A DNA stretch of 64,000 nucleotides, from sequence record MN850566.1. One strand, 5' to 3'. A program made the translations under genes and the position numbers. The notes beneath the pieces are model-generated. The model saw only the letters and a list, made by a program, of their open reading frames with translations, was not told where the DNA came from and searched no databases. Numbering within the stretch: the stretch's first letter is position 1; each line of letters begins with the position of its first letter. Below are positions 3,410 through 58,222 of the stretch, in pieces. The DNA is from Escherichia phage garuso.

Positions 3410-3739
3410 TTAGTCTGCCAACCTTAAATTGAAATTAACACCAAATTTTTCACATACTTCCAACATATACTCAAGTGAAACATTCCCAGTGAGGTGGATT
3501 ATGTTGGATACACGAGCTTGAGAGATACCACAAATTTTAGCAACTTGCTCTTGAGAAAGACCTCTGGATTTAATCTCTCTCTTAAAACGATGTGCAACGA
3601 AGTCTCTCATTTCGTCTACATCCATTGGACAAATATAACTCTCCATTTCAGCCTCTCTATCAGCCTCCCAATCATCTTGTGGGGCATAAGGGTCAAAAAC
3701 CTCATTCATCTTTCTTCTTCCGTTTGCGTGAAGTGTCAA
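3410..3739 (-). CDS. putative HTH DNA-binding protein
   Basis: 109 aa; C-terminal LSQEQVAKICGISQARVSNI resembles XRE/Cro-type helix-turn-helix. Confidence 0.5.
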   Translation of the reverse strand: MTLHANGRRKMNEVFDPYAPQDDWEADREAEMESYICPMDVDEMRDFVAHRFKREIKSRGLSQEQVAKICGISQARVSNIIHLTGNVSLEYMLEVCEKFGVNFNLRLAD

Positions 3740-8469: not shown

Positions 8470-8520
8470 AAGTCCTCCTATACAAGATATTGTATAAGGT
8501 ACTCTTCCCTGAGCACCTTG

Positions 8521-9072
8521 TCAACTTAGTTTTGCAAACTCTCCGTGGAGTTTAATAGCAGCTTCACAGTAAGCTTTATGGGCTTCTTCAGGGGTGTCAA
8601 ACATACCAAGATGATAGTTTTTACCTTGTAAACGTATCATTGCTCGAAACCTTTTACTTATCTTCTGTACACCTTTTGGCAACCCAGATGGGGACTCTCT
8701 TGACCGATTGCAAGAGTTTTGTGAAGCTGTACAAACCCTTAAATTCAAGTACCTATTGTCCCAACCGTCCCCATTCTTATGGTCAACCTGTAAGGTTTTA
8801 TCAGGTAGATATCCATCCATATACAAGACAACTAAACGATTTGCTTGGTAACCCCTTCCATCAATCAGCAACTGAACTGACTTGTGTCCATCAGTATTTG
8901 TTCTGTAGTTTCCAGCCCTCTTACCTCCAAATCTAGAGTTAGAGTTTGCATTACCTTCTCTAAACTTCCAAGTAAAGACCCCTGTTTCGGGGTCGTAGTC
9001 CAATAGCTCCTTAAGACGAATTTCTGTAATCATTTCAACACCATCAATGTACCTCATACCAGCTCTTACCAA
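8521..9072 (-). CDS. HNH homing-endonuclease-like protein
   Basis: 183 aa; HNH core VDHKNGDGWDNRYLNLRVCTASQN; N-terminal LDYDPETGVFTWK shared with ORF 18923-19447; overlaps 3' end of polymerase exon 2. Confidence 0.7.
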   Translation of the reverse strand: MVRAGMRYIDGVEMITEIRLKELLDYDPETGVFTWKFREGNANSNSRFGGKRAGNYRTNTDGHKSVQLLIDGRGYQANRLVVLYMDGYLPDKTLQVDHKNGDGWDNRYLNLRVCTASQNSCNRSRESPSGLPKGVQKISKRFRAMIRLQGKNYHLGMFDTPEEAHKAYCEAAIKLHGEFAKLS

Positions 9073-9604
9073 CCTTACCTGTGCCAGTTACAAGCGTCTC
9101 ACTCTTCAAACCTAAATTCTTAGATGCCTGACCATACATCCAGTCAGTTATGGCTTTAACTTCTTGAGTCATACTTTCTGGGCATTCCCAACTGTTTTCA
9201 TCGTGGTATGCCAGCAAAAGCCTAGCACCGATTGCTGGTTTTCGTCCATTTAATTTTGTCAATCCTTCTTCACATGCTCTTCTACAAGCAAGGTTAATTG
9301 CCTCGTTCTGAATCTGGCTTTCCGAACCCATGAGCAAATAATTCAATAACTTATGTGGAGATTTACACCACAACCATGCACCTGCTACCTTTACAAAACC
9401 CCCTTTAGAGATTGCAGCAGTCTTACCAAACACCTCTTCAAGTGCCTTTTTAGTTGCTTTGTAGTCAGCTTCCAAGTCATCTAGCAGCTTCTTAATTTTA
9501 GGCAAACGAATAAAGTAAGTCTGTTTAGTCAGCGCACCTTCCTGAGTAGTTGCAGCCTTAATCGTCTTAGCAAACTTCTCATCACCTGCACCGAACAATA
9601 CATC
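9044..9604 (-). CDS. DNA polymerase (family A), 3' exon
   Basis: Begins inside motif B (LFGAGDEKFAK, cf. T7 YGAGDEK) and contains motif C region LLAYHDE; 5' boundary approximate. Confidence 0.75.
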   Translation of the reverse strand, partial: DVLFGAGDEKFAKTIKAATTQEGALTKQTYFIRLPKIKKLLDDLEADYKATKKALEEVFGKTAAISKGGFVKVAGAWLWCKSPHKLLNYLLMGSESQIQNEAINLACRRACEEGLTKLNGRKPAIGARLLLAYHDENSWECPESMTQEVKAITDWMYGQASKNLGLKSETLVTGTGKVGKSWYEVH

Positions 9605-9915
9605 TGGTCAATACACTCGCAAGGTGTACCAGTTCTCTTATGAACTTCTCCGCATTTCTACGGAGTGTCGGACTATATCACGTAGTAATAATACTACCGT
9701 TGCACTTGGGAATGGTCATTAGCTTACCACCCTACTCTACTCAGTTCATACATTAAGTATGCTTTTCGATAGTCTCTGAACGTTTCTCTGTTAGGAATCT
9801 CTATAGTTATGTTATTTGCTTTAGGAGTCCTAACAGAGACTTCGCTGCTGATTACCATATCTTTACAGACTTAGGCTTCCAGCAATTCACAACGTTTTAC
9901 ATGCGCCACTGACGC
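9599..9915 (-). other. group I intron interrupting the DNA polymerase gene (no internal ORF)
   Basis: Minus strand carries R element GTTCAGAGACTA (plus 9770-9781) and S element GATATAGTCC (plus 9670-9679) in correct order; intervening sequence has stops in all frames; exact splice sites not resolved. Confidence 0.65.
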
Positions 9916-12054
9916 ATAGATACCATTCTTAGCCTTCTTACGTCCTTTGCTAATCTCATGAAGAAGATTCTCATCCTGAGTAGCTCGACAAGTCAAGATG
10001 TCCTGCTCATCATTCAAGTTAAAGTAAATACTATTCAGTGTATGTGCATCAGTCCCTGAATAGACAACGTACAGGTCATTCTCAGAGTCATAGTGAAGGT
10101 ACTTATCAATCTCTGGGTTGAGATACTCATCGAAGTGTTTGCAGTAATAGCGTCCATCTTCTTGACGAGTAAACTCAATCTCTTCTTTACCTTGCGTTAC
10201 CGCTTTGGTGAACTCTTTATCACCCATAAAGTTACAAAGGAGAACTAGCTGGGCTGAGTTCATATCAACGGAGACTACGTTGGTTCCCTCTTCGCAAATC
10301 CACACCTCCCTCATAGGCGCTCCATAGACAGCAGCACCAGACGGTACGTTTACAATACCATATTGTGTCATACGTCCAGTTGAAGTGCCAAACACCATTG
10401 CACCAGCACTAAGGCGACCATCAGGACGAATCTGGTTCAACCAACCTTTTTCATCATCCTTTGAGTTCTCAATAGTTCTGCGTCGGTGCATCAAAGTATA
10501 GTACTTAGCAATCTTCTGTCCAAGCTCACCTTCAATCGTATCATAAGATGATTCAGTAAGTTTTGGTGAAGTACGGATTAAGCAAGGTTCAAGCAAATCT
10601 GTGTATTTCTTCACAGACCAGTTATGCTCGATGTACTGTACACCTTCATGTTCAACATAACTCAAACCACACCGCTCAACCATTTCCTGCCACTTAGGAT
10701 GCTTTGTAATCATCTTTTTATTGTCTTTGAAACGACAAACTTTGATAGGGCGACCATCTGAGTCTTTCTTGTAATTCCAGTCATCTGGAATCCAACCAAC
10801 TGATTTCAAGTAGTCTTTAACAACTGCTACCTGAGTCATACGAGAAACTTCAAACTCAATTGGTGTATATGGTGCATCAATCAAACCTGTGTAGCGACTT
10901 GACTCAAGTTCAAAGTGATTGACAACGTGACTGTTATAGTACTTCACAGTCTTGACTGTTTTTACTGGTTTCCAGTCTTTGCATTTTTTGCCAATCTTTG
11001 CATTCAACTCGTTGCAGATTGCACGAGCATCCTTCATCGCTACAAAACCCTCTTTGTACTCTTCACCAGTTACAGAGTTGGTTGGTGTATAGCAATTCCT
11101 TTTTTCAATGTTAAAAATCTTTGTAGTTGGCTTACCAAATGGTTTGATTTCATAAGTCTGCATCTCACCATTACGTACCTGCTGACGATACTTTGTCTTA
11201 GGGTACTTGGTAATTCTCTTCAGTCCATCTGCATGACCAAATGTTTCAACATACTCATTCCAAGCTTTTGCAAACTCTTCTCCAGTCACTTTACCTTTGG
11301 TCTTAATAGTTGGAGGTAGATGTGGTTCAACCTCTGAAGCAAGCTCATTAGTCAACTTGTCAAGTTCCTTTACATGGAACTCCATAAGCTCCTTATCAGC
11401 TTTCCAACCATTGATAGCTTGCTGGCTCATCCAGAAAGATGTCTCTTTAGCTCGCATGTAAGTCTCATAAGTGTCTATACCACACTTCTTAAGCTTGAGA
11501 TACTCGTTATCAAGTGCCCGTTTAGTTTTGGCATTAATACGGATATCTTCTACAACACGAGTGAAGATTTCTGCATTCCACACACCCCAATGTTCAATCT
11601 CTGGTTTACGGACACCGACACGAGCACCCCATGCAGCCAAACCATGAGCACCTTTATAACCCTTTGGGGTTGGCCTATCCATCCACTGAACACGAGACTG
11701 GATAAGAGAATCCTGAAAGAAATTACTCCACGGCTTACATTTTGGATTATCAAAGTTCCATAAATCAGGCGCAATGTGATTGAAAACCCACCAGTCATAG
11801 CCGAGACCATTATGGATGCAAAGACGTTTTGCCTTTAACGCAAATTCAACACCTTCACGTAAGCCGCCCTTGATGTACTTAGTGTACTTGTGACCGAGGA
11901 TAGGTTCATCTGTAAAGACCCATACAGGTGGCTCTTCATCATCAGATTTATAGTCTGCGAAAGCCATTACGTGCACTTTAGTGAACTCAAGGAGTAAACC
12001 ATCAGTTTCTGTATCACCAACCAAATGTAAGTTTTTAAAATCTACGTTTTCCAT
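9916..12054 (-). CDS. DNA polymerase (family A), 5' exon with 3'-5' exonuclease domain
   Basis: Exo I motif DTETDGL; motif A region DMNSAQL; ends in motif B ...RKKAKNGIY; start set at Met with GAGGGAG SD (ORF track 9871-12084). Confidence 0.8.
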
Positions 12055-12109
12055 TTTTACTCCCTCTAAAATCATTAACCTCATACATTACTGCAAAAAA
12101 TTATAAAAA

Positions 12110-12145
12110 GCAAGTTGACAATGCACTTGACAAGGTGTTAATCTT
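12110..12145 (+). promoter_or_regulatory. candidate promoter with tandem TTGACA boxes
   Basis: AGTTGACAATGCACTTGACAAGGTGTTAATC; near-identical block at 57650-57680; divergent intergenic region. Confidence 0.35.
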
Positions 12146-12311
12146 TGCGAAGTGGGTTTTTACTTAAAAGGTTACTTAACAGTTTAACTATACAGATACT
12201 TTAAAACTCTTAAAAGATTATTTAATAGCTTTTAAAAAGCTTTAAAGTATAACGTATAGAATACGTTAAGATAAAAGATTAAAACTTAATAGTTACTTAA
12301 AAGAGGCTTAC

Positions 12312-21246: not shown

Positions 21247-21574
21247 AGCAAAAAAGCTATCTTATGATGACATTATCTCAGGTGCTAAGTTAGGTGTTGA
21301 TAGTATCGGACAAGATGTTAAGCACGGAGACACAGTCATGTACTGTGATGACCGAAGAGGTAGAAGTGCAATCTTGTTTGGAAGAATTGTTTGCAAGATG
21401 AGAGGTAATTACGTTGTTGCAGACATGGATGTGAACGTTACACAAAAACTTGAAACAATTATGGATGCTAGCGCACCATCATGGTTCCTAAATTGTATGC
21501 ACACCTCGTCAGTCACAAAAGTAAGTGATAAGTTTTACGATATGTGGCAGAATGAGCAAATTTTCAAGATTTAA
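21239..21574 (+). CDS. hypothetical protein
   Basis: 111 aa ORF. Confidence 0.45.
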   Translation: MSKAKKLSYDDIISGAKLGVDSIGQDVKHGDTVMYCDDRRGRSAILFGRIVCKMRGNYVVADMDVNVTQKLETIMDASAPSWFLNCMHTSSVTKVSDKFYDMWQNEQIFKI

Positions 21575-24168: not shown

Positions 24169-25238
24169 TTAACCAGCACCCAATCTTTTTAGGTGGTGAG
24201 AGAAAAACTTTTGACTCACTCAATAAGCACTACCCAAAAATCTTTGAACTTTATAAACAACAAAAAGCACAAGATTGGTCAGAAGATGAGTTCCCTTTTG
24301 AACAATCACGTCTTGATTTTGAGAGTGTCCCAGCATCAATGTCAGGTGTAATGCTTGAGATTCTTAAGTGGCAATGGGAAGCAGACACTCAAGTTGCTAA
24401 GAGCTTGGCATTTGCCTTTGCACCTTTTATCTCTGATGACATATATGCAACTGCAATTATGAAGCAGTCTGAGATTGAAAACCTACATGCTCTTACTTAC
24501 TCAGAGATTGTAAGGCAATGTATTAAAAACCCTGAAACAATCTTAGATGAGATTAACCAGAATGTTGCTGTGCAAGACCGATTAAAAACTGTGAATCGTG
24601 TTCTTGAAGAATTATTGGATGAAGGGATAAACTACCGACTGAGTTATGTACGTGATTCACTTCTGGACAAAGACCCTTTACACTTCCATAAAGTGATTCT
24701 AAAAGGTCTGTTTGCAGTGACTGCACTTGAAGGTATATCTTTTATGGCATCCTTTGCATGTACCTTTGCACTTGATGCTCAAGATAAATTTCAGGGTATT
24801 GCTCAAGCTGTCCAGAAGATTATGCTTGACGAAATCCTTCACACTAAAATTGATATTGAAGTTTTAAAAGAAACTTTAAGAGATGATGAGTGGCAGAAAG
24901 CTTTTCAACAGATTCTTCCAGAGATTAAAGTAATCTTAGATGAAGTAGTTGAAAGTGAAGAGAAATGGTCGTATTATATCTTCTCCGAAGGACGTGCTGT
25001 AGTTGGCTTAAATACAAAGCTTCTTCATGAGTGGGTTTACTATAATGCTGCCCCACTGTATGATATGTTTGGCATTCCAAGAGATTTTGTAGCTCCCAAA
25101 GAACCACCTTTGAAGTACATGATTAAGAAGATGGAAATTGATAAAGAGCAGAATGCTAATCAGGAGCAACAGAACGGTGCGTACCTGTTGAATACTGTTG
25201 TAGATGATTTGAATAGTGGATTTTTAGAGGTTCCTTAA
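24165..25238 (+). CDS. nrdB: ribonucleotide reductase class Ia, beta subunit
   Basis: About 357 aa from ATG with AAAGGAG SD (ORF track starts 24105); follows nrdA. Confidence 0.8.
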   Translation: MINQHPIFLGGERKTFDSLNKHYPKIFELYKQQKAQDWSEDEFPFEQSRLDFESVPASMSGVMLEILKWQWEADTQVAKSLAFAFAPFISDDIYATAIMKQSEIENLHALTYSEIVRQCIKNPETILDEINQNVAVQDRLKTVNRVLEELLDEGINYRLSYVRDSLLDKDPLHFHKVILKGLFAVTALEGISFMASFACTFALDAQDKFQGIAQAVQKIMLDEILHTKIDIEVLKETLRDDEWQKAFQQILPEIKVILDEVVESEEKWSYYIFSEGRAVVGLNTKLLHEWVYYNAAPLYDMFGIPRDFVAPKEPPLKYMIKKMEIDKEQNANQEQQNGAYLLNTVVDDLNSGFLEVP

Positions 25239-27872: not shown

Positions 27873-27883
27873 AACTTGACAAG

Positions 27884-28270
27884 GTGGTGTGGGTCTTGAT
27901 AGGCTTACATCACCTTTTTATTTGGAGTTACATTATGGACTTGTGGCTTTATGTAGCAGTTTGTGGGATTGTATGTCTGATAATCTTATTTATTCTTGGA
28001 ATAATGCGATTTAGAGACATCATACAGTCAGATTTTTTGCCTGAGTTTACCATGATAGTTGGAGTTATTACACTTTGTGTCTTGGCTGTGTTCTATTCAT
28101 ACAAAACTGTGATATGGATGGAGGCAAACAATTGTGTAAAAACTCATCAGCATCGTGAGGTTACTCATTTTGTGAGTGTACTTAGTGGTAGCACCACTAT
28201 ACTTGTCCCACAAACTTCTGTAGAGTATCTTTACACATGTGATAATGGTAAAACTATATGGTGGAATTAA
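27884..28270 (+). CDS. hypothetical membrane protein
   Basis: 128 aa, multiple hydrophobic segments. Confidence 0.4.
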   Translation: MVWVLIGLHHLFIWSYIMDLWLYVAVCGIVCLIILFILGIMRFRDIIQSDFLPEFTMIVGVITLCVLAVFYSYKTVIWMEANNCVKTHQHREVTHFVSVLSGSTTILVPQTSVEYLYTCDNGKTIWWN

Positions 28271-47874: not shown

Positions 47875-48035
47875 TCAATAACTTACAAAAAACTTTTAAA
47901 AAAGTGTTGACAATACCCCTTGACATTGGTAACTTTGTTCGAGGGGGTTTATCTAAAAGGGATTCACTTAAAAGATTCTTTATAGATAAGCTTAAAAATT
48001 GCTTGCAATCAGCTATCAAAACAAGTAAATTACTA

Positions 48036-48093: not shown

Positions 48094-48624
48094 ATGAACA
48101 AGTTTAAAGCTATCAACTTCATTCGTTCAAATGCTGTAATGTCAAAACCTGTAAAAGACACATACGAATTTCGCTGCAATGGGGTACACTTTGCAACCAT
48201 CACTAAGTCAGAAAACGGGGCTTATTACATTCATCGCCGTAATGTTTCTACTGTTGTAGTCTCTCACTTTATGCAAGCTGTAGCGGAATTATTACCGTTA
48301 TTCTTAGAGATTTACTTAGATGAGTGCAAAAACGTTCGTAACCACGTTAAAAACCTTTTAAACGGTTATAAAATGGCTTATGAACGTTCTATCAAGTCCT
48401 TAAACAAGTTTTATAAAGCCCCTGTAAATACTGTTTCAATGGCTTACAGTGTAAGCGGTGAGTTGGTTAGTCTCTTCGAAGTGGAAGAAATCGAACTATA
48501 TAACTCACGTCCTAGCGGTTACTCTAAGACACTAGGAGAGGGCTTATCTTTCAATATCAAGAACTTAGAAAAAACTTTAAAAGATATTGAAAAAGATATT
48601 GACGAGACAATCAAAAGTCTGTAA
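48094..48624 (+). CDS. small early protein (cassette gene 14)
   Basis: 176 aa ORF. Confidence 0.5.
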   Translation: MNKFKAINFIRSNAVMSKPVKDTYEFRCNGVHFATITKSENGAYYIHRRNVSTVVVSHFMQAVAELLPLFLEIYLDECKNVRNHVKNLLNGYKMAYERSIKSLNKFYKAPVNTVSMAYSVSGELVSLFEVEEIELYNSRPSGYSKTLGEGLSFNIKNLEKTLKDIEKDIDETIKSL

Positions 48625-48952: not shown

Positions 48953-48990
48953 ACGCCGCAACGGGGCTAAATAGCCCCAGATACCTTTAC

Positions 48991-49017
48991 AGCCCCTTTC
49001 CCATAGGGGCTTTTTTA
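48991..49017 (+). terminator. rho-independent terminator ending the plus-strand block
   Basis: AGCCCCT-TTCCCAT-AGGGGCT followed by TTTTTT. Confidence 0.6.
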
Positions 49018-49019
49018 CG

Positions 49020-50550
49020 TCTTATCAAATCCCTTATACAACCCTTTCCCTTTCCTTTCCAGAATCTTATCAGACCTTAAAAAGCAATAACTCTATAGTC
49101 TACTCTATAGCCTTTTATCAAATCAACTTAAATATAAGCCCATAACCCGAAAGGGAAGGGCAACCGTTTAAACGCTCTATAAAGCTCTATAACAGCCTTA
49201 TCAACCTAACTTAAGGGATTGCATTAACTCACCCTAAAAAGCCCTTTATAAAGCTTCCCAGAGACTTAAAAGAATCTTATAAGGGTGTAAGCTTTATCAT
49301 CTCGTTAGCTATCTTGTGAACTACTAAACAAGCCCCTTGATAGTAACTGAAAAGTATGTTATAGGGGCTTTAAAGTTACTTTGAAGTAGCTTAAAAGTTA
49401 CGTAAATGCTAGCCCCCTTAACATTTTCTTAACAATTTCTTAACAATCCCTACATAGTTATGCTTTTAAGACACTTGTTAGCAACTTGTTAGCCCCTTGT
49501 TAAATCTCTGTTAAGACCACGTAAAAGCCTTGTAAGAACCTTTGACATAGCCTTAAAAGCTCCTGTAAAGCCCTATAAAGAGCTATCTGTACAGTTGGGG
49601 GGTAAATACTAGGAAGAGACTTAAAAGGGGTTATACAGAGCTATACAGAGCTTTTAAGAGGTATGTTTAAAGAATCACTAAGAAAGGAAAGGGAACGATA
49701 AGAAAAGAGTAGTGACCATGTTAATAGCTTGTTAAAAAGATTAAACACTTGTTAGAGACTTGTTAATTATCTTAACAAAATAACTCTTAACATTTAACTA
49801 CTTAGCTCTTGTTAGTCATCTGTTAAGATTCTGTAAAGCCTATTCAGCACTTGTTAAGAAACTGTTACACCCTTGTTAGTTCTGTTAAGAAACTGTTAAG
49901 ACCTTTGAAGAGTTGTTAAGAAGATGTGAGAACTGTTAAGAGATTGTTAAGGATATTTTAAAATTTTGCAAAGTACTTGTAAGGGAGCTGTTAAGGGCTA
50001 CCAAGCAGATATACATCCTAGACAGATATTTTTCAGTTCCTTCAAAGACCCTAAAAAATGACTTGATAGTCCTATTTTATAAAAATTTTAAAATTCTGAA
50101 TAATTACCTATACAGTCTTTTAAAAATACAGGTAGAAACAGGCTTATAAGATACCTTGTTAGTACCGTGTTAGACCTTGTGAGATAAGGTCTGTAAAGAT
50201 ATTCCTGTTAAGTTTGTTAAAACAGTCTATATAGAGGCTTAGTAATACCTAGTGAACACCTATAGAGGGTATCATAGCTAACCTAGAGATTAAGAGGTGT
50301 ATAGGAGCTTCTAAGAGGGTATAGAGAGATGGTTAAGGTGATTGTATAGGTTGTTTAGAAGGCTTGTTAGAAGAGTGTTTAGAAGGGCTATACAGAGGGG
50401 CTATTAAGACCACTAGATAGTTACTAAGATACTATATAGTACTATATAACTATATAGAGAGTAAGATTAAGAAGGTTGTTAAGAAGGATGTTAAGAAGGA
50501 TAGATATTTTATTCACATATGATGGTGACCCAGAGGTTGGGACAACCGAT
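49020..50550. repeat. ORF-free region with more than 20 TGTTA(A/G) repeats phased at about 11 bp
   Basis: e.g. CTTGTTAGCAA-CTTGTTAGCCC-CTTGTTAAATC-TCTGTTAAGAC near 49470-49515 and TGTTAAGAAACTGTTACACCCTTGTTAGTTCTGTTAAGAAACTGTTAAGA near 49850-49900; no ORF of 60 aa or more on either strand. Confidence 0.7.
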
Positions 50551-50551
50551 G

Positions 50552-50584
50552 AAATTTTATAAAAATTAAAAAGCCCCCAACTAA
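50552..50584 (-). terminator. rho-independent terminator ending the minus-strand block
   Basis: Minus strand AGCCTCC-TTAGTT-GGGGGCT followed by TTTTTAATTTTT. Confidence 0.5.
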
Positions 50585-50602
50585 GGAGGCTCTTAAGATA
50601 TT

Positions 50603-57189: not shown

Positions 57190-57416
57190 TTTTCAGTTCT
57201 CCTGCGATTTATAATTTTGCTGCAATAGAGAAACGAAGTAAACTCACTGGAAGAAACCACTAAGTGTTGTTCACTAGATTGAGCCATTGCCCTGAAATAC
57301 ATTCCAGTCAAAGCATCATAGTGACTATTCTTTCCAATTGAGGTTATATAGCCATGACTCTTTGCAGTTTGATATAAATCTATAATATCTGCGATTTCTA
57401 ATTGGGAACTACACAT
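57183..57416 (-). CDS. hypothetical protein
   Basis: 77 aa ORF. Confidence 0.4.
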   Translation of the reverse strand: MCSSQLEIADIIDLYQTAKSHGYITSIGKNSHYDALTGMYFRAMAQSSEQHLVVSSSEFTSFLYCSKIINRRRTEKC

Positions 57417-57580
57417 AGATAATCCTCTTGTCTTCTGTAATTTTGAAAGAACAGGTACAGACCAATTTCAGAGGATGAATAGTAGATTAATTCTACCCTT
57501 TTTGATTCCTTACAGTGATTGGTATTCTTACCTTTCTTCGGTTTATTTGATTTTCTCATTAAGTCTCCTTTGTAGAACAA
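57398..57580 (-). CDS. hypothetical basic protein
   Basis: 60 aa ORF, first gene of minus block. Confidence 0.3.
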   Translation of the reverse strand: MFYKGDLMRKSNKPKKGKNTNHCKESKRVELIYYSSSEIGLYLFFQNYRRQEDYLCVVPN

Positions 57581-57649
57581 GGCAGACCTACAGCTTTAAG
57601 TAAGATGGTACAGTAATCCATACAACAAGTCAAGAACTATTGCAAGTTA

Positions 57650-57690
57650 AAAAAGTTGTTGACAAAGTACTTGACAAGGTGTAGGCTTAT
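57650..57690 (+). promoter_or_regulatory. candidate promoter with tandem TTGACA boxes
   Basis: GTTGACAAAGTACTTGACAAGGTGTAGGCTTATAAATAC; shares TTGACA-N-ACTTGACAAGGTG with 12110-12145. Confidence 0.35.
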
Positions 57691-57808
57691 AAATACTTAG
57701 AAGATAACTTAAAAGGTTCCTCTAAAAAGGCTATTTAAACAGATATCTTTCTGGATATCTATCTTTTATCTTAAAAGCCTTTTAAGAGGTCTTATAAGAG
57801 GCATACCA

Positions 57809-58180
57809 ATGAAAAACAGAACAAACAAAGGCCAGTTTAAAAAAGGCCAATCTGGAAACCCATCTGGAAGACCAAAAGGCTCTCGTAACAAAAGCTCACT
57901 TGTAAAAGCTCAACTGACCATTGATAATTCTGCTGAGTTTGCTGCAAAACTGTTTGAGGCGATTGTTACAAGGGACGCTGCTAAGCTTGCAGAGTTCGGG
58001 TTAAACACAGACGACGTAACCATCAAGAGTATGATTGAGGTCGGTAAAACCATCTTTACTCACTCAGCAGGTGAGATGAAAGCACTTGCAGCAGATACTA
58101 AGAAAACCCCTGATAATGGTGGTCAGCCACAGACAGATAACAAACCAACGTTCTCTGCTGTAGCGACTCTCAAAAAATAA
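57809..58180 (+). CDS. hypothetical protein with GNPSGRPKG motif
   Basis: 123 aa; N-terminal KKGQSGNPSGRPKGSRNK basic motif. Confidence 0.45.
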   Translation: MKNRTNKGQFKKGQSGNPSGRPKGSRNKSSLVKAQLTIDNSAEFAAKLFEAIVTRDAAKLAEFGLNTDDVTIKSMIEVGKTIFTHSAGEMKALAADTKKTPDNGGQPQTDNKPTFSAVATLKK

Positions 58181-58192
58181 TTTTAAAAGGTG

Positions 58193-58222
58193 TTGACAGA
58201 CTCTACAAAGTTGCTCTAAAGT
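58193..58222 (+). promoter_or_regulatory. sigma70-like promoter TTGACA-18-TAAAGT
   Basis: Upstream of 58262 gene. Confidence 0.45.

Follow-up and report, generated by a model that had tools for sequence, protein, structure and literature searches.

Each of the two strand-switch regions of Escherichia phage garuso (MN850566.1; the window, that is the whole stretch analysed, is 64,000 nucleotides long) contains a tandem TTGACA block. Judged from its sequence, the block is probably the -35 and spacer core of a host sigma-70-type promoter, with the nearby palindromes lying in leaders that are probably structured. The promoters are ordinary apart from one real oddity, a second and strictly conserved TTGACA. 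The window derives from a Felixounavirus, a Felix O1-like myovirus, and shows 96–99% identity to Felixounavirus genomes.

The tandem TTGACA block and the predicted promoters

Open reading frames run leftward up to 12084 (region 1) and 57580 (region 2), and rightward from 12312 and 57809, respectively. GC skew changes sign at both regions; these turns coincide with gene orientation and thus carry no independent information. The first-pass annotation had set both blocks in strand switches bounded by 12085–12311 and 57581–57808. The setting is borne out by the ORF directions and by the skew flip at each, and the right-hand limits stand; the left-hand limits probably lie further left, the real intergenic spans being probably 12055–12311 and 57560–57808, since conserved pairs of a Shine-Dalgarno sequence and an ATG put the leftward starts at 12054 and 57559. 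In divergent relatives these intergenic regions are conserved as much as, or more than, the flanking genes. Rightward of region 1 lies an operon with a 140-aa ORF, a dNMP kinase, a primase/helicase and then further genes. A Pfam search with the small proteins flanking both regions gave DUF5681 as its sole match and no DNA-binding domain adjoining either region.

The block, TTGACA-N4-ACTTGACAAGGTG (23 nt), has exactly two copies in the window (12115–12137 and 57659–57681). The claim that both regions share it was thus correct, with positions a few bases off the 12113–12140 and 57653–57678 first given. In 100 dinucleotide shuffles, with up to three mismatches allowed, the mean was 0.05 matches and no shuffle gave three or more. 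A third copy with a longer gap (Table 1; region 3) lies upstream of a 176-aa ORF at 48094. TTGACA is frequent in the genome, with 52 plus-strand copies in the window; of perfect pairs 12–13 bp apart, three were counted where about 0.085 would be expected (Poisson P = 1e-4). Each of these pairs is intergenic, lies on the plus strand and points at a plus-strand ORF 115–160 nt downstream, the spacing within pairs being 12, 12 and 13 bp (a gap of 6–7 nt).

Conservation was compared across Felixouna-, Moogle- and Suspvirus relatives. Over the three sites, none of the 36 hexamer columns varies vs 14 of 19 in the gap between the hexamers (Fisher p = 2.7e-9); at the third copy, both hexamers are invariant in 17 distinct relatives and four of the seven spacer positions vary. 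The A-tract and the TAnnnT are also kept while neighbouring positions vary. Purifying selection thus falls on the hexamers rather than on the spacer, except that the second hexamer is itself inside the spacer, at about -24 to -17, and is conserved like the -35.

Table 1. Positions of the sequence elements in the window
Region	Element	Position	Strand	Remarks
1	TAATGT, proposed -10 of leftward DNA-polymerase promoter	12085–12090	-	17 nt from TTGCTT
1	TTGCTT, proposed -35 of leftward DNA-polymerase promoter	12113–12108	-	overlaps A-tract
1	A-tract AAAAAGCAAG	12105–12114	+	directly upstream of -35, UP-proximal-like; invariant in 21/21 distinct relatives, 9 nt to its left vary
1	Upstream TTGACA, proposed -35 of rightward promoter	12115–12120	+	sole TAnnnT within N15–19 is at N18, with TGn; invariant in relatives
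1	Second TTGACA, within ACTTGACAAGGTG	12127–12132	+	about -24 to -19; invariant
1	TGtTAATCT, extended -10-like	12136–12144	+	predicted start near 12150–12152
1	Predicted rightward leader, about 160 nt	12150–12311	+	A/T-rich; four CTTWWAAG words plus variants
1	Palindrome TAACGTAT-AGA-ATACGTTA	12250–12268	+	8-nt arms
2	Leftward promoter TTGACT-N17-TACCAT	57605–57633	-	called by scan; invariant in all relatives
2	A-tract AAAAAA	57649–57654	+	upstream of -35; AAAAA kept in relatives
2	Upstream TTGACA, proposed -35 of rightward promoter	57659–57664	+	TAGGCT at N17; invariant; TTGACA of Felix O1 "P41"
2	Second TTGACA, within ACTTGACAAGGTG	57671–57676	+	about -23 to -18; invariant
2	TAGGCT, proposed -10	57682–57687	+	predicted start near 57693–57695
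2	Predicted long irregular hairpin, leader of the DUF5681 gene	57708–57798	+	33 pairs; the 57741–57760 palindrome is its tip
2	Palindrome AGATATC-TTTCTG-GATATCT	57741–57760	+	invariant in every relative
2	Palindrome TCTTAAAAG-C-CTTTTAAGA	57769–57787	+	9-nt arms, two CTTWWAAG words
3	Third copy, AAAAAAgtg-TTGACA-N7-TTGACA-ttgg-TAACTT	47898–47935	+	TTGACA-N17-TGgTAACTT; first hexamer at 47907; predicted start near 47942
	One-mismatch copy of ACTTGACAAGGTG	8514–8526	-	-35 of TTGACA-N17-TACCTT
	Lone 13-mer ACTTGACAAGGTG	27874–27886	+	-35 of TTGACA-N18-TAGGCT

Canonical features of sigma-70 promoters are a TTGACA -35, a proximal UP subsite (of the rrnB P1 type) and an extended -10 TGn (of the galP1 type). 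At 12115, 57659 and 47907 a -35, a -10 with T-12/A-11/T-7, intergenic placement and suitable orientation were all found. The first hexamer alone is followed by a TAnnnT 17–18 nt on (TAATCT at N18, TAGGCT and TAACTT at N17); a TGn precedes it at two of the three sites (regions 1 and 3), and each of these -10 candidates matches TATAAT at only three of six positions. Relatives keep TGnTAnnnT in region 1 (TGgTAGTCT or TGtTAGTCT) and TA(G/A)nnT in region 2 (TAGCCT, TAAGTT, TAGTGT). For the second hexamer, no -10-like hexamer was found 15–19 nt downstream in regions 1 and 3 (best 2/6, most 0–1/6); in region 2 its sole partner is a weak AATACT at N15, which shifts and degrades in relatives with a 1-nt insertion. 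The initially transcribed sequence predicted for the third copy is similar to that of region 1 (CGAAGTGGGTTTTTAC vs CGAGGGGGTTTATC).

In the promoter model that we favour, the A-tract would serve as a proximal-UP-like element, the first TTGACA as the -35 and the TAnnnT as a weak -10, the second TTGACA being left within the spacer. E. coli or Salmonella RNA polymerase would start rightward at or near the positions predicted in Table 1, and a separate leftward sigma-70-type promoter would stand back to back with it in each divergent region. In region 1 the leftward polymerase promoter was read from the sequence by eye and was not called by the generic scan; its start is predicted near 12078, with the likely true ATG at 12054. 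All relatives preserve its TAnnGT (TAGGGT, TAAGGT, TAGTGT) at constant spacing, while the spacer sequence varies. The leftward promoter of region 2 has a predicted start near 57598 and would serve the small ORF starting at 57559 and the genes behind it. The divergent -35 hexamers are separated by 1 bp in region 1 and by 25 bp in region 2, and the predicted starts by about 73 and 96 bp. The first-pass annotation mentioned neither the leftward promoters nor the third copy, and it also lacked the clusters of CTTWWAAG words described below.

A generic promoter and terminator scan of both regions called the leftward promoter of region 2 but passed over the rightward ones, whose -10 matches do not reach its 4/6 rule. 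Its only other call, TTGTCA-N18-AATAGT, is not conserved in relatives. Other candidates were likewise discarded. TTGTCAA, read from the block on the minus strand as a leftward -35, has no workable -10 in region 1 and a non-conserved one in region 2. TATAAA (57688) and minus-strand TATAAT (12101) as -10 elements would require impossible spacings of 10–11 or 22–23 nt and are unconserved in Moogle- and Susp-type relatives. The T4-late-like TATAAATA at 57688–57695 is not conserved in divergent relatives, and the TAGAAT in the palindrome loop of region 1 lacks a -35 and is not conserved. Sigma-32, sigma-E, sigma-28, PhoB/OmpR-type direct repeats and the marbox, compared by eye, misfit in their spacings. 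TTGACA-N6-TTGACAAGG was searched in IMG/VR; among the matches listed, most seem from contig size to lie in unrelated contigs and only about a dozen in Felix-like ones, which was judged to be chance level.

Similar promoters occur elsewhere. The genome of phage AYO145A has about ten of the form A-tract/TTGACA/N16–18/TAnnnT, and a similar A-tract stands ahead of most of its TTGACA promoters. Erwinia phage Pistou has a single hexamer at the homologous polymerase site, in a plain TTGACA-N17-TACATT, and TTGACA-N16-TAGAAT in its DUF5681 region.

Parts of these promoters have been predicted before. The Felix O1 genome paper (Whichard et al. 2010; PMC3185647) took divergent promoters to lie between genes 96/97 and between genes 40/41. 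The TTGACA of its P41, at Felix O1 position 21515, is the same DNA as the upstream hexamer of the block in region 2; the -10 of P41 was given as TATAGG at N15, whereas the one proposed here is TAGGCT at N17. In the AYO145A record (NC_028825), promoter features at 24198–24232 and 65801–65830 overlie both blocks, with the hexamers paired with TATAAA at 23 or 11 nt; both spacings are impossible, so existing predictions are loose. These earlier predictions remarked neither on the tandem hexamer and its conservation nor on a third copy or leftward partners. The same Felix O1 paper identified neither an RNA polymerase of the phage nor any polymerase modifiers, stated that the mechanism timing transcription was unknown, and reported no homologous sequence in the 96–97 region (PMC3185647). 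By RT-PCR, genes 41, 42, 96, 97 and 98 were maximal at 25 min and the text calls ORF 96 early (PMC3185647), which leaves these data ambiguous on "early" timing. Given naked DNA, an all-E. coli cell-free system yields FelixO1, VpaE1 and Alf5 (PMC13591810), which indicates that host polymerase is enough to launch the phage and lends indirect support to initiation by the host holoenzyme. In the literature searched, no transcriptome or start-site map of Felix O1 or a Felixounavirus was found.

Palindromes, leader RNA and CTTWWAAG words

The palindromes had been proposed, together with the TTGACA block, as shared operator or promoter architecture. Both are present, the arms in region 1 being 8 nt long at 12250–12268 rather than 7 nt at about 12248–12264; the palindrome at 57769–57787, which is better than that at 57741–57760, had been overlooked. 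By shuffling, an arm of at least 8 nt has P = 0.17 in region 1 and 0.07 in region 2, and an arm of at least 9 nt P = 0.017 in region 2. By presence alone the palindromes are within chance; their significance lies in conservation and in compensatory changes in relatives.

In region 1, two pairs of the palindrome change on both sides and are still complementary (A-T to T-A in six sequences, C-G to T-A in two). The right arm could pair equally well with CTTAAC at 12176–12181, with the same covariation, so that about two independent events support two alternative pairings equally. A consensus long hairpin of 26 pairs can be drawn here, with 98% of cells paired vs 11–59% when the partners are slid. 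The palindrome at 57741–57760 is invariant and therefore gives no covariation information. The long region 2 hairpin has an RNAalifold consensus of -25 kcal/mol, and its substitutions comprise one pair going from C-G to U.G to U-A and one from A-U to G.U. Four additional Mooglevirus sequences held one informative variant only (Sf14, which adds a U.G). Region 2 counts two to three independent events, which, like those of region 1, are very few for a covariation argument.

Compared with shuffled sequences, leader folding gave z values of -1.7 to -1.8 in region 1 (not significant), -2.6 to -2.7 in region 2 and -3.0 in region 3; in regions 1 and 2, folding of the minus strand is as good as that of the plus strand, or better. 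The region 1 leader is 83–89% identical to divergent relatives vs 67–77% for the downstream gene. No Rfam family was found for the leaders at the gathering score or at a permissive E-value, where only noise (E = 0.14–0.96) appeared.

The promoter half of the proposal is supported by the -35, the A-tract, the TAnnnT, the conservation and the third copy. The operator half finds no support for the palindromes: relative to the predicted starts, that of region 1 occupies about +100 to +118 and those of region 2 +47 to +67 and +75 to +94, downstream and off the promoter cores, with stem-like substitutions and with half-sites unrelated between regions (ACGTAT vs GATATC; TAACGTAT and AGATATC share none). 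Lambda-like operators were not recognised either: there is no dyad at the promoter core and no repeated half-site, and what the regions share is the TTGACA block only. The palindromes are most likely stems of a leader RNA structure, a reading preferred to shared operators because their symmetry is kept by compensatory changes and fits the leader hairpins. The rightward transcripts would open with conserved leaders of 115–160 nt rich in self-complementary CTTWWAAG, and these would act as RNA, in mRNA stability, processing or translation control. The leaders may also bind protein at the DNA level, since the stem word also fills a 1.6-kb repeat region at 48960–50600.

CTTWWAAG occurs in 42 copies vs about 8 expected, and its clusters are confined to regions 1 and 2 and this 1.6-kb ORF-free region, which is full of related repeats spaced 11–12 bp apart. 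In region 1 the words recur in 12–13-bp steps, and the counterpart of region 2 in Pistou likewise contains the triplet CTTAAAAG-CTTTAAAG-CTGTAAAG.

Alternative explanations of the second hexamer and the repeats

The promoter model gives no account of the invariance of the second hexamer. Our best guess is that it would be an extra docking site, for sigma region 4 or a phage factor, tuning or timing the three promoters. The wider proposal, in which a phage factor or a second sigma region 4 docks at the second TTGACA and times the three units, with the CTTWWAAG arrays part of the same DNA-level network, we regard as doubtful. It is equally unlikely that both hexamers form the site of a phage regulator, such as the 99-aa Cro/C1-type HTH protein, with the palindromes as further operators. 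The second hexamer is indeed invariant yet has no -10 partner, and the statement on Felix O1 timing quoted above leaves room for a regulator. An HTH_3 protein is encoded elsewhere in the genome, named repressor or regulator in some records; records of Felixouna- and Moogleviruses contain it but no Erwinia phage was found to, and Pistou, the one Erwinia relative examined, has no tandem hexamers, but this co-occurrence is a single contrast between lineages differing in many genes. Cro/C1-type dimers normally read inverted repeats, whereas the hexamers are direct repeats at spacings that are not fixed. Moreover, two single promoters use the 13-mer ACTTGACAAGGTG as a -35 of ordinary appearance, and the palindromes, with their unrelated half-sites, are far downstream of the promoter cores.

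That 13-mer use, together with the perfect consensus and invariance of both hexamers and the AATACT in region 2, could instead speak for two overlapping promoters, each hexamer being a -35, with starts about 12 nt apart or different holoenzymes. We hold this to be quite improbable, since regions 1 and 3 have nothing -10-like at 15–19 nt past the second TTGACA, the AATACT degrades in relatives with the insertion, and by eye no match to another sigma consensus was evident. The excess and clustering of CTTWWAAG, its 12–13-bp steps, the triplet recurring in Pistou and the position of region 1 next to the DNA polymerase and primase/helicase genes would suit replication or packaging sites, with the words, palindromes and perhaps the hexamers as iteron-like arrays and transcription incidental. 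This is very unlikely: no initiator protein or DnaA-box-like element was identified, the GC skew turns merely follow gene orientation, the G.U-tolerant changes in region 2 favour plus-strand RNA pairing, and the promoter features stand whatever is made of replication. Chance, or A/T-rich low complexity without function, might seem to suffice for palindromes that singly fall within the shuffle range and for so common a hexamer as TTGACA. For the block it is refuted by two exact 23-nt copies against the 0.05 expected and by hexamers that stay constant in three genera despite variation in the nucleotides between them; the intergenic regions are moreover as conserved as coding DNA, and as a general explanation chance has next to no credibility.

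Relation to known systems and significance

The favoured promoter model resembles canonical E. coli sigma-70 promoters in the TTGACA, the 17–18-nt spacer, the TAnnnT, the A-tract at about -46 to -40 and, in regions 1 and 3, the TGn; it differs in the second TTGACA added in the spacer and in the weak 3/6 -10. As at lambda PR/PRM, two outward-facing promoters lie within about 75–100 bp, but the phage regions are without repeated dyad operators between or over the cores, their palindromes are downstream and unrelated, and the phage is virulent. The sites of lambda CII and P22 C1 are TTGC-N6-TTGC direct repeats straddling the -35 of promoters which, when CII-dependent, lack a perfect -35. The tandem blocks are like them in that a motif near the -35 of a phage promoter is repeated directly after 6 nt; they are not sites of this activator type, the period being 12–13 bp rather than 10, the repeats full -35 consensus sequences and a perfect -35 present. 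The predicted leader hairpins recall structured 5' leaders (the ompA stem-loop; the RNase III sites of T7 early and lambda N transcripts) in being long, A/U-rich and irregular, in standing before a ribosome-binding site and in their conservation, with few changes that keep pairing; unlike these, they have no sequence or Rfam relation to described leaders.

Felix O1-type phages are widely used in typing of Salmonella and E. coli, in biocontrol and in cell-free phage engineering. The promoter elements, the third copy and the leftward partners are targets for start mapping and engineering, and loose database annotations are corrected. The second hexamer, kept in three genera though apparently unusable as a -35, is the one feature from which something new might be learnt. 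If the second hexamer is not regulatory, what remains are ordinary host-type promoters with a strong -35, a weak -10 and structured leaders. Should it prove regulatory, it would lead towards the temporal switch that is still missing, and the docking-site reading, if true, would be a previously undescribed way for a virulent phage to programme the host sigma-70 polymerase.

Divergent regions and their flanking genes

The orientation of the ORFs and the GC skew confirm that regions 1 and 2 are divergent strand-switch regions. Both have matches in more than 250 Felix O1-like genomes (Ounavirinae, Felixounavirus) at identities of up to 98–99%, the best being in Escherichia phages tootiki, bumzen and adrianh. 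In Felix O1 numbering, region 1 is flanked by genes 96 and 97 and region 2 by genes 40 and 41. The DUF5681 gene is followed rightward by a gene for a Ro-like RNA-binding protein, a tRNA cluster and, further on, morphogenesis genes; 17 tRNA genes, expected in Felix O1-like phages, are clustered at 59843–63380, downstream of the region 2 operon.

The DNA polymerase gene appears as split ORFs (9871–12084 and 9044–9598) because it is interrupted by a group I intron at 9648–9923 on the minus strand (Rfam RF00028, 63 bits, E = 1e-13). The polymerase of the annotated relative AYO145A (NC_028825) is uninterrupted (906 aa), and Felix O1 was reported to be without introns (PMC3185647). A conserved GAGGGAG-ATG indicates that the polymerase start is likely at 12054, not 12084.

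Positions and elements of the divergent regions, the third tandem-hexamer site (region 3) and related single promoters
Feature	Position	Direction	Elements or neighbours
Region 1	12085–12311	divergent	left: DNA polymerase gene, leftward; right: 140-aa ORF, then dNMP kinase and primase/helicase, all rightward
Region 1 block	12115–12137	rightward	predicted -10 TAATCT at N18 from first hexamer, TGn just before
Region 1 leftward promoter (proposed)		minus	TTGCTT (= invariant AAAAAGCAAG beside block); 17 nt on, TAATGT (12090–12085)
Region 1 palindrome	12250–12268		TAACGTAT-AGA-ATACGTTA
Region 2	57581–57808	divergent	left: small and tail/lysis gene block, leftward; right: DUF5681 gene, rightward
Region 2 block	57659–57681	rightward	predicted -10 TAGGCT at N17 from first hexamer
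Region 2 leftward promoter (predicted)	57633–57605	minus	TTGACT-N17-TACCAT
Region 2 palindrome	57741–57760		AGATATC-TTTCTG-GATATCT
Region 2 further palindrome	57769–57787		TCTTAAAAG-C-CTTTTAAGA
Region 3 (third copy)	47898–47935		AAAAAAgtg-TTGACA-N7-TTGACA-ttgg-TAACTT (first TTGACA at 47907), equal to TTGACA-N17-TGgTAACTT
Further ACTTGACAAGGTG copy	27874 (site 27874–27925)		TTGACA at 27876, ordinary -35 of TTGACA-N18-TAGGCT
One-mismatch ACTTGACAAGGTG copy	8514–8526	minus	TTGACA at 8521, -35 of TTGACA-N17-TACCTT

Predicted tandem-hexamer promoters

A TTGACA block shared by the two regions had been proposed in the first-pass annotation. TTGACA-N4-ACTTGACAAGGTG does occur exactly twice, a few bases from where it had been placed, and shuffled sequences gave 0.05 matches even with three mismatches permitted. 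Only the first (upstream) hexamer lies at a workable distance from a TAnnnT. After the second, the best match to TATAAT in regions 1 and 3 was only 2/6, and region 2 has only AATACT at N15, which is weak and not conserved. An A-tract, which resembles a proximal UP-element subsite, precedes both blocks, its end 3–5 nt away from the hexamer; about 10 other intergenic TTGACA/N16–18/TAnnnT sites in the fully annotated AYO145A are arranged in this way.

Relatives were compared using 28 IMG/VR contigs (21 distinct sequences) for region 1 and 27 contigs (14 distinct) for region 2, Felix O1 and four Mooglevirus records being added later to the region 2 set. The set covers Felixounavirus, Mooglevirus (Michonne, Sf13/14/17, HP1, KMM2) and Suspvirus (SUSP2), and the flanking genes of its most distant members are only 67–85% identical. 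Conservation extends to both hexamers, the TAnnnT and the A-tract, but not to the nucleotides between and beside the hexamers. A genome-wide search revealed exactly one further perfect tandem TTGACA pair in intergenic DNA. This third copy is upstream of a 176-aa ORF at 48094, outside any divergent region; among 17 distinct relatives it shows the same pattern of conservation, and the sequence predicted to be transcribed first is similar to that of region 1. With the three sites pooled, none of the 36 hexamer columns varies, whereas 14 of the 19 columns between the hexamers do (Fisher p = 2.7e-9), and perfect hexamer pairs 12–13 bp apart number three against about 0.085 expected. Geometry, A-tract context and comparative footprint thus bear out the shared promoter architecture, and the upstream TTGACA is predicted on these grounds to serve rightward transcription as a sigma-70 -35 element.

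Leftward promoters are also predicted. That of region 2, detected by scanning, is invariant in all relatives. About 38 nt downstream of it, a conserved, strong AAGGAG-ATG at 57559 opens a 53-aa leftward ORF (57401–57559, minus strand) which is conserved in all relatives; this ORF was entered as ORF84 in the original Felix O1 record but is without annotation in AYO145A. In region 1 the TAATGT keeps its T, A and final T in every relative, and the spacer is constant in length and variable in sequence. Each region would thus hold a back-to-back pair, with predicted starts about 73 bp (region 1) and 96 bp (region 2) apart.

In Felix O1, Whichard et al. described four transcription units, supposed that genes 96/97 and genes 40/41 each have divergent promoters between them, and saw "no other obviously homologous sequences" in the two regions (PMC3185647). 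Their predicted promoter P41, TTGACA(N15)TATAGG at 21515–21541 (PMC3185647), takes as its TTGACA the first of the two hexamers in the region 2 block. The Felix O1 sequence is GGTATAGGCT where the window has GGTGTAGGCT. In the AYO145A record each block is covered by an annotated promoter, with its hexamers paired at distances that misfit sigma-70 spacing. By sequence, the elements are best described as ordinary sigma-70-type promoters, loosely predicted before. Felix O1 was stated to encode no RNA polymerase or polymerase modifier and to have an unknown mode of temporal control (PMC3185647). A cell-free system made entirely from E. coli yields FelixO1, VpaE1 and Alf5 when given naked phage DNA (PMC13591810), which fits host-polymerase promoters. 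The label "early", also given to these starts in the first-pass annotation, is ambiguous, since genes 41, 42, 96, 97 and 98 were maximal at 25 min by RT-PCR, yet the same text calls ORF 96 early (PMC3185647).

Palindromes and predicted leaders

The two palindromes that had been noticed are present, and region 2 contains another that had been missed. Shuffles of region 1 gave an 8-nt arm with P = 0.17, and those of region 2 a 9-nt arm with P = 0.017; alone, the palindromes are unremarkable for such A/T-rich DNA. The first-pass annotation had likened them to operator or promoter elements. Speaking against an operator role are their unrelated half-sites and a position of +47 to +118 relative to the predicted starts. 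The symmetry of the region 1 palindrome is kept in relatives via two double changes, but its right arm could pair equally well with CTTAAC at 12176–12181, where the covariation is the same; this alternative forms the base of a long 26-pair hairpin. Using RNAalifold, the palindrome first noticed in region 2 becomes the tip of an irregular 33-pair hairpin (57708–57798). Here one pair reads C-G, U.G or U-A across relatives, another changes from A-U to G.U, and a further U.G is seen in Sf14; the other substitutions fall in loops or helix ends, and two terminal pairs are broken in a few sequences. Because the palindromes lie far downstream, have unrelated half-sites and keep their pairing, we favour leader RNA structure, with a putative role in stability, processing or translation control, over operators, the covariation amounting to few independent events. 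Region 2 folds better than shuffles (z = -2.6 to -2.7) and region 1 not significantly so (z = -1.7 to -1.8), the two DNA strands fold about equally well, and an Rfam search matched no family. The predicted rightward leaders are about 160, 115 and 150 nt long and equal or exceed the neighbouring genes in conservation (83–92% versus 67–93% identity).

The self-complementary CTTWWAAG, abundant in the leaders, is present in 42 copies in the window, where about 8 would be expected; its clusters are confined to regions 1 and 2 and one ORF-free stretch of 1.6 kb. This hairpin-stem word may itself be a protein-binding unit. The ORF-free stretch (48960–50600) lies between the convergent ends of plus and minus gene blocks and shares CTTWWAAG with both divergent regions; it contains dozens of degenerate words (CTTGTTAG, CTGTTAAGA, CTATACAGAG, CTTAAAAG, TTAAGAAGG), many at 11–12-bp steps. 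Candidate roles for it are those of an origin, a packaging site or a protein-array site, and such a repeat stretch is not mentioned in the Felix O1 genome paper (PMC3185647). The Erwinia phage Pistou homologue of region 2 (L224 1880–1950) has a triplet, CTTAAAAG-t-CTTTAAAG-ataa-CTGTAAAG, which mirrors CTTAAAAG-c-CTTTTAAG-aggt-CTTATAAG at 57770–57798; unlike the window triplet, it is upstream of the proximal TTGACA-N16-TAGAAT promoter.

The second hexamer

The second hexamer is at about -24 to -17, within the spacer of the promoter set by the first. Its offset is 12, 12 and 13 bp from the first hexamer and 6, 5 and 4 bp from the -10; the distance held constant is that from first hexamer to -10. 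The 13-mer around it, ACTTGACAAGGTG, has six matches with one mismatch permitted, versus 0.19 expected. The promoter at 27876 overlaps a hairpin and T-run at the end of nrdD. Since ACTTGACAAGGTG supplies the predicted -35 of single promoters elsewhere, the second hexamer has the appearance of a functional -35 module in a position where -35 function is impossible. It may be a second docking site for sigma region 4, a site at which a phage factor binds, or something else. A lead for such a factor is a 99-aa Cro/C1-type HTH_3 protein (Pfam E = 4e-11) encoded in this strictly lytic phage at about 3410–3739 (minus strand; AYO145A 57904–58200, L004:12904–13200, minus strand). It is found in 260 records, Felixounavirus and Mooglevirus genomes among them and no Erwinia (Kolesnikvirus) phage, a single phyletic contrast in which Pistou is also without the tandem hexamers. 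Cro/C1-type dimers do not usually read direct repeats at variable spacing.

The one outgroup genome, Pistou (Kolesnikvirus; polymerase 63% identical), has a single TTGACA-N17-TACATT upstream of the polymerase cluster and TTGACA-N16-TAGAAT upstream of the DUF5681 gene, with ACTTGACA only further downstream. Because its homologous regions carry TTGACA/TAnnnT-type promoters, the promoter would be old; the second hexamer, absent from the promoter spacer in this outgroup, seems to have been gained in the enterobacterial genera, although it is invariant in them. A literature search found no start-site or RNA-seq study. As far as we found, three features had not been described before: the invariant second consensus hexamer that the spacers of the three paralogous promoters share, the leftward promoters in back-to-back arrangement, and leaders that are conserved and probably structured.
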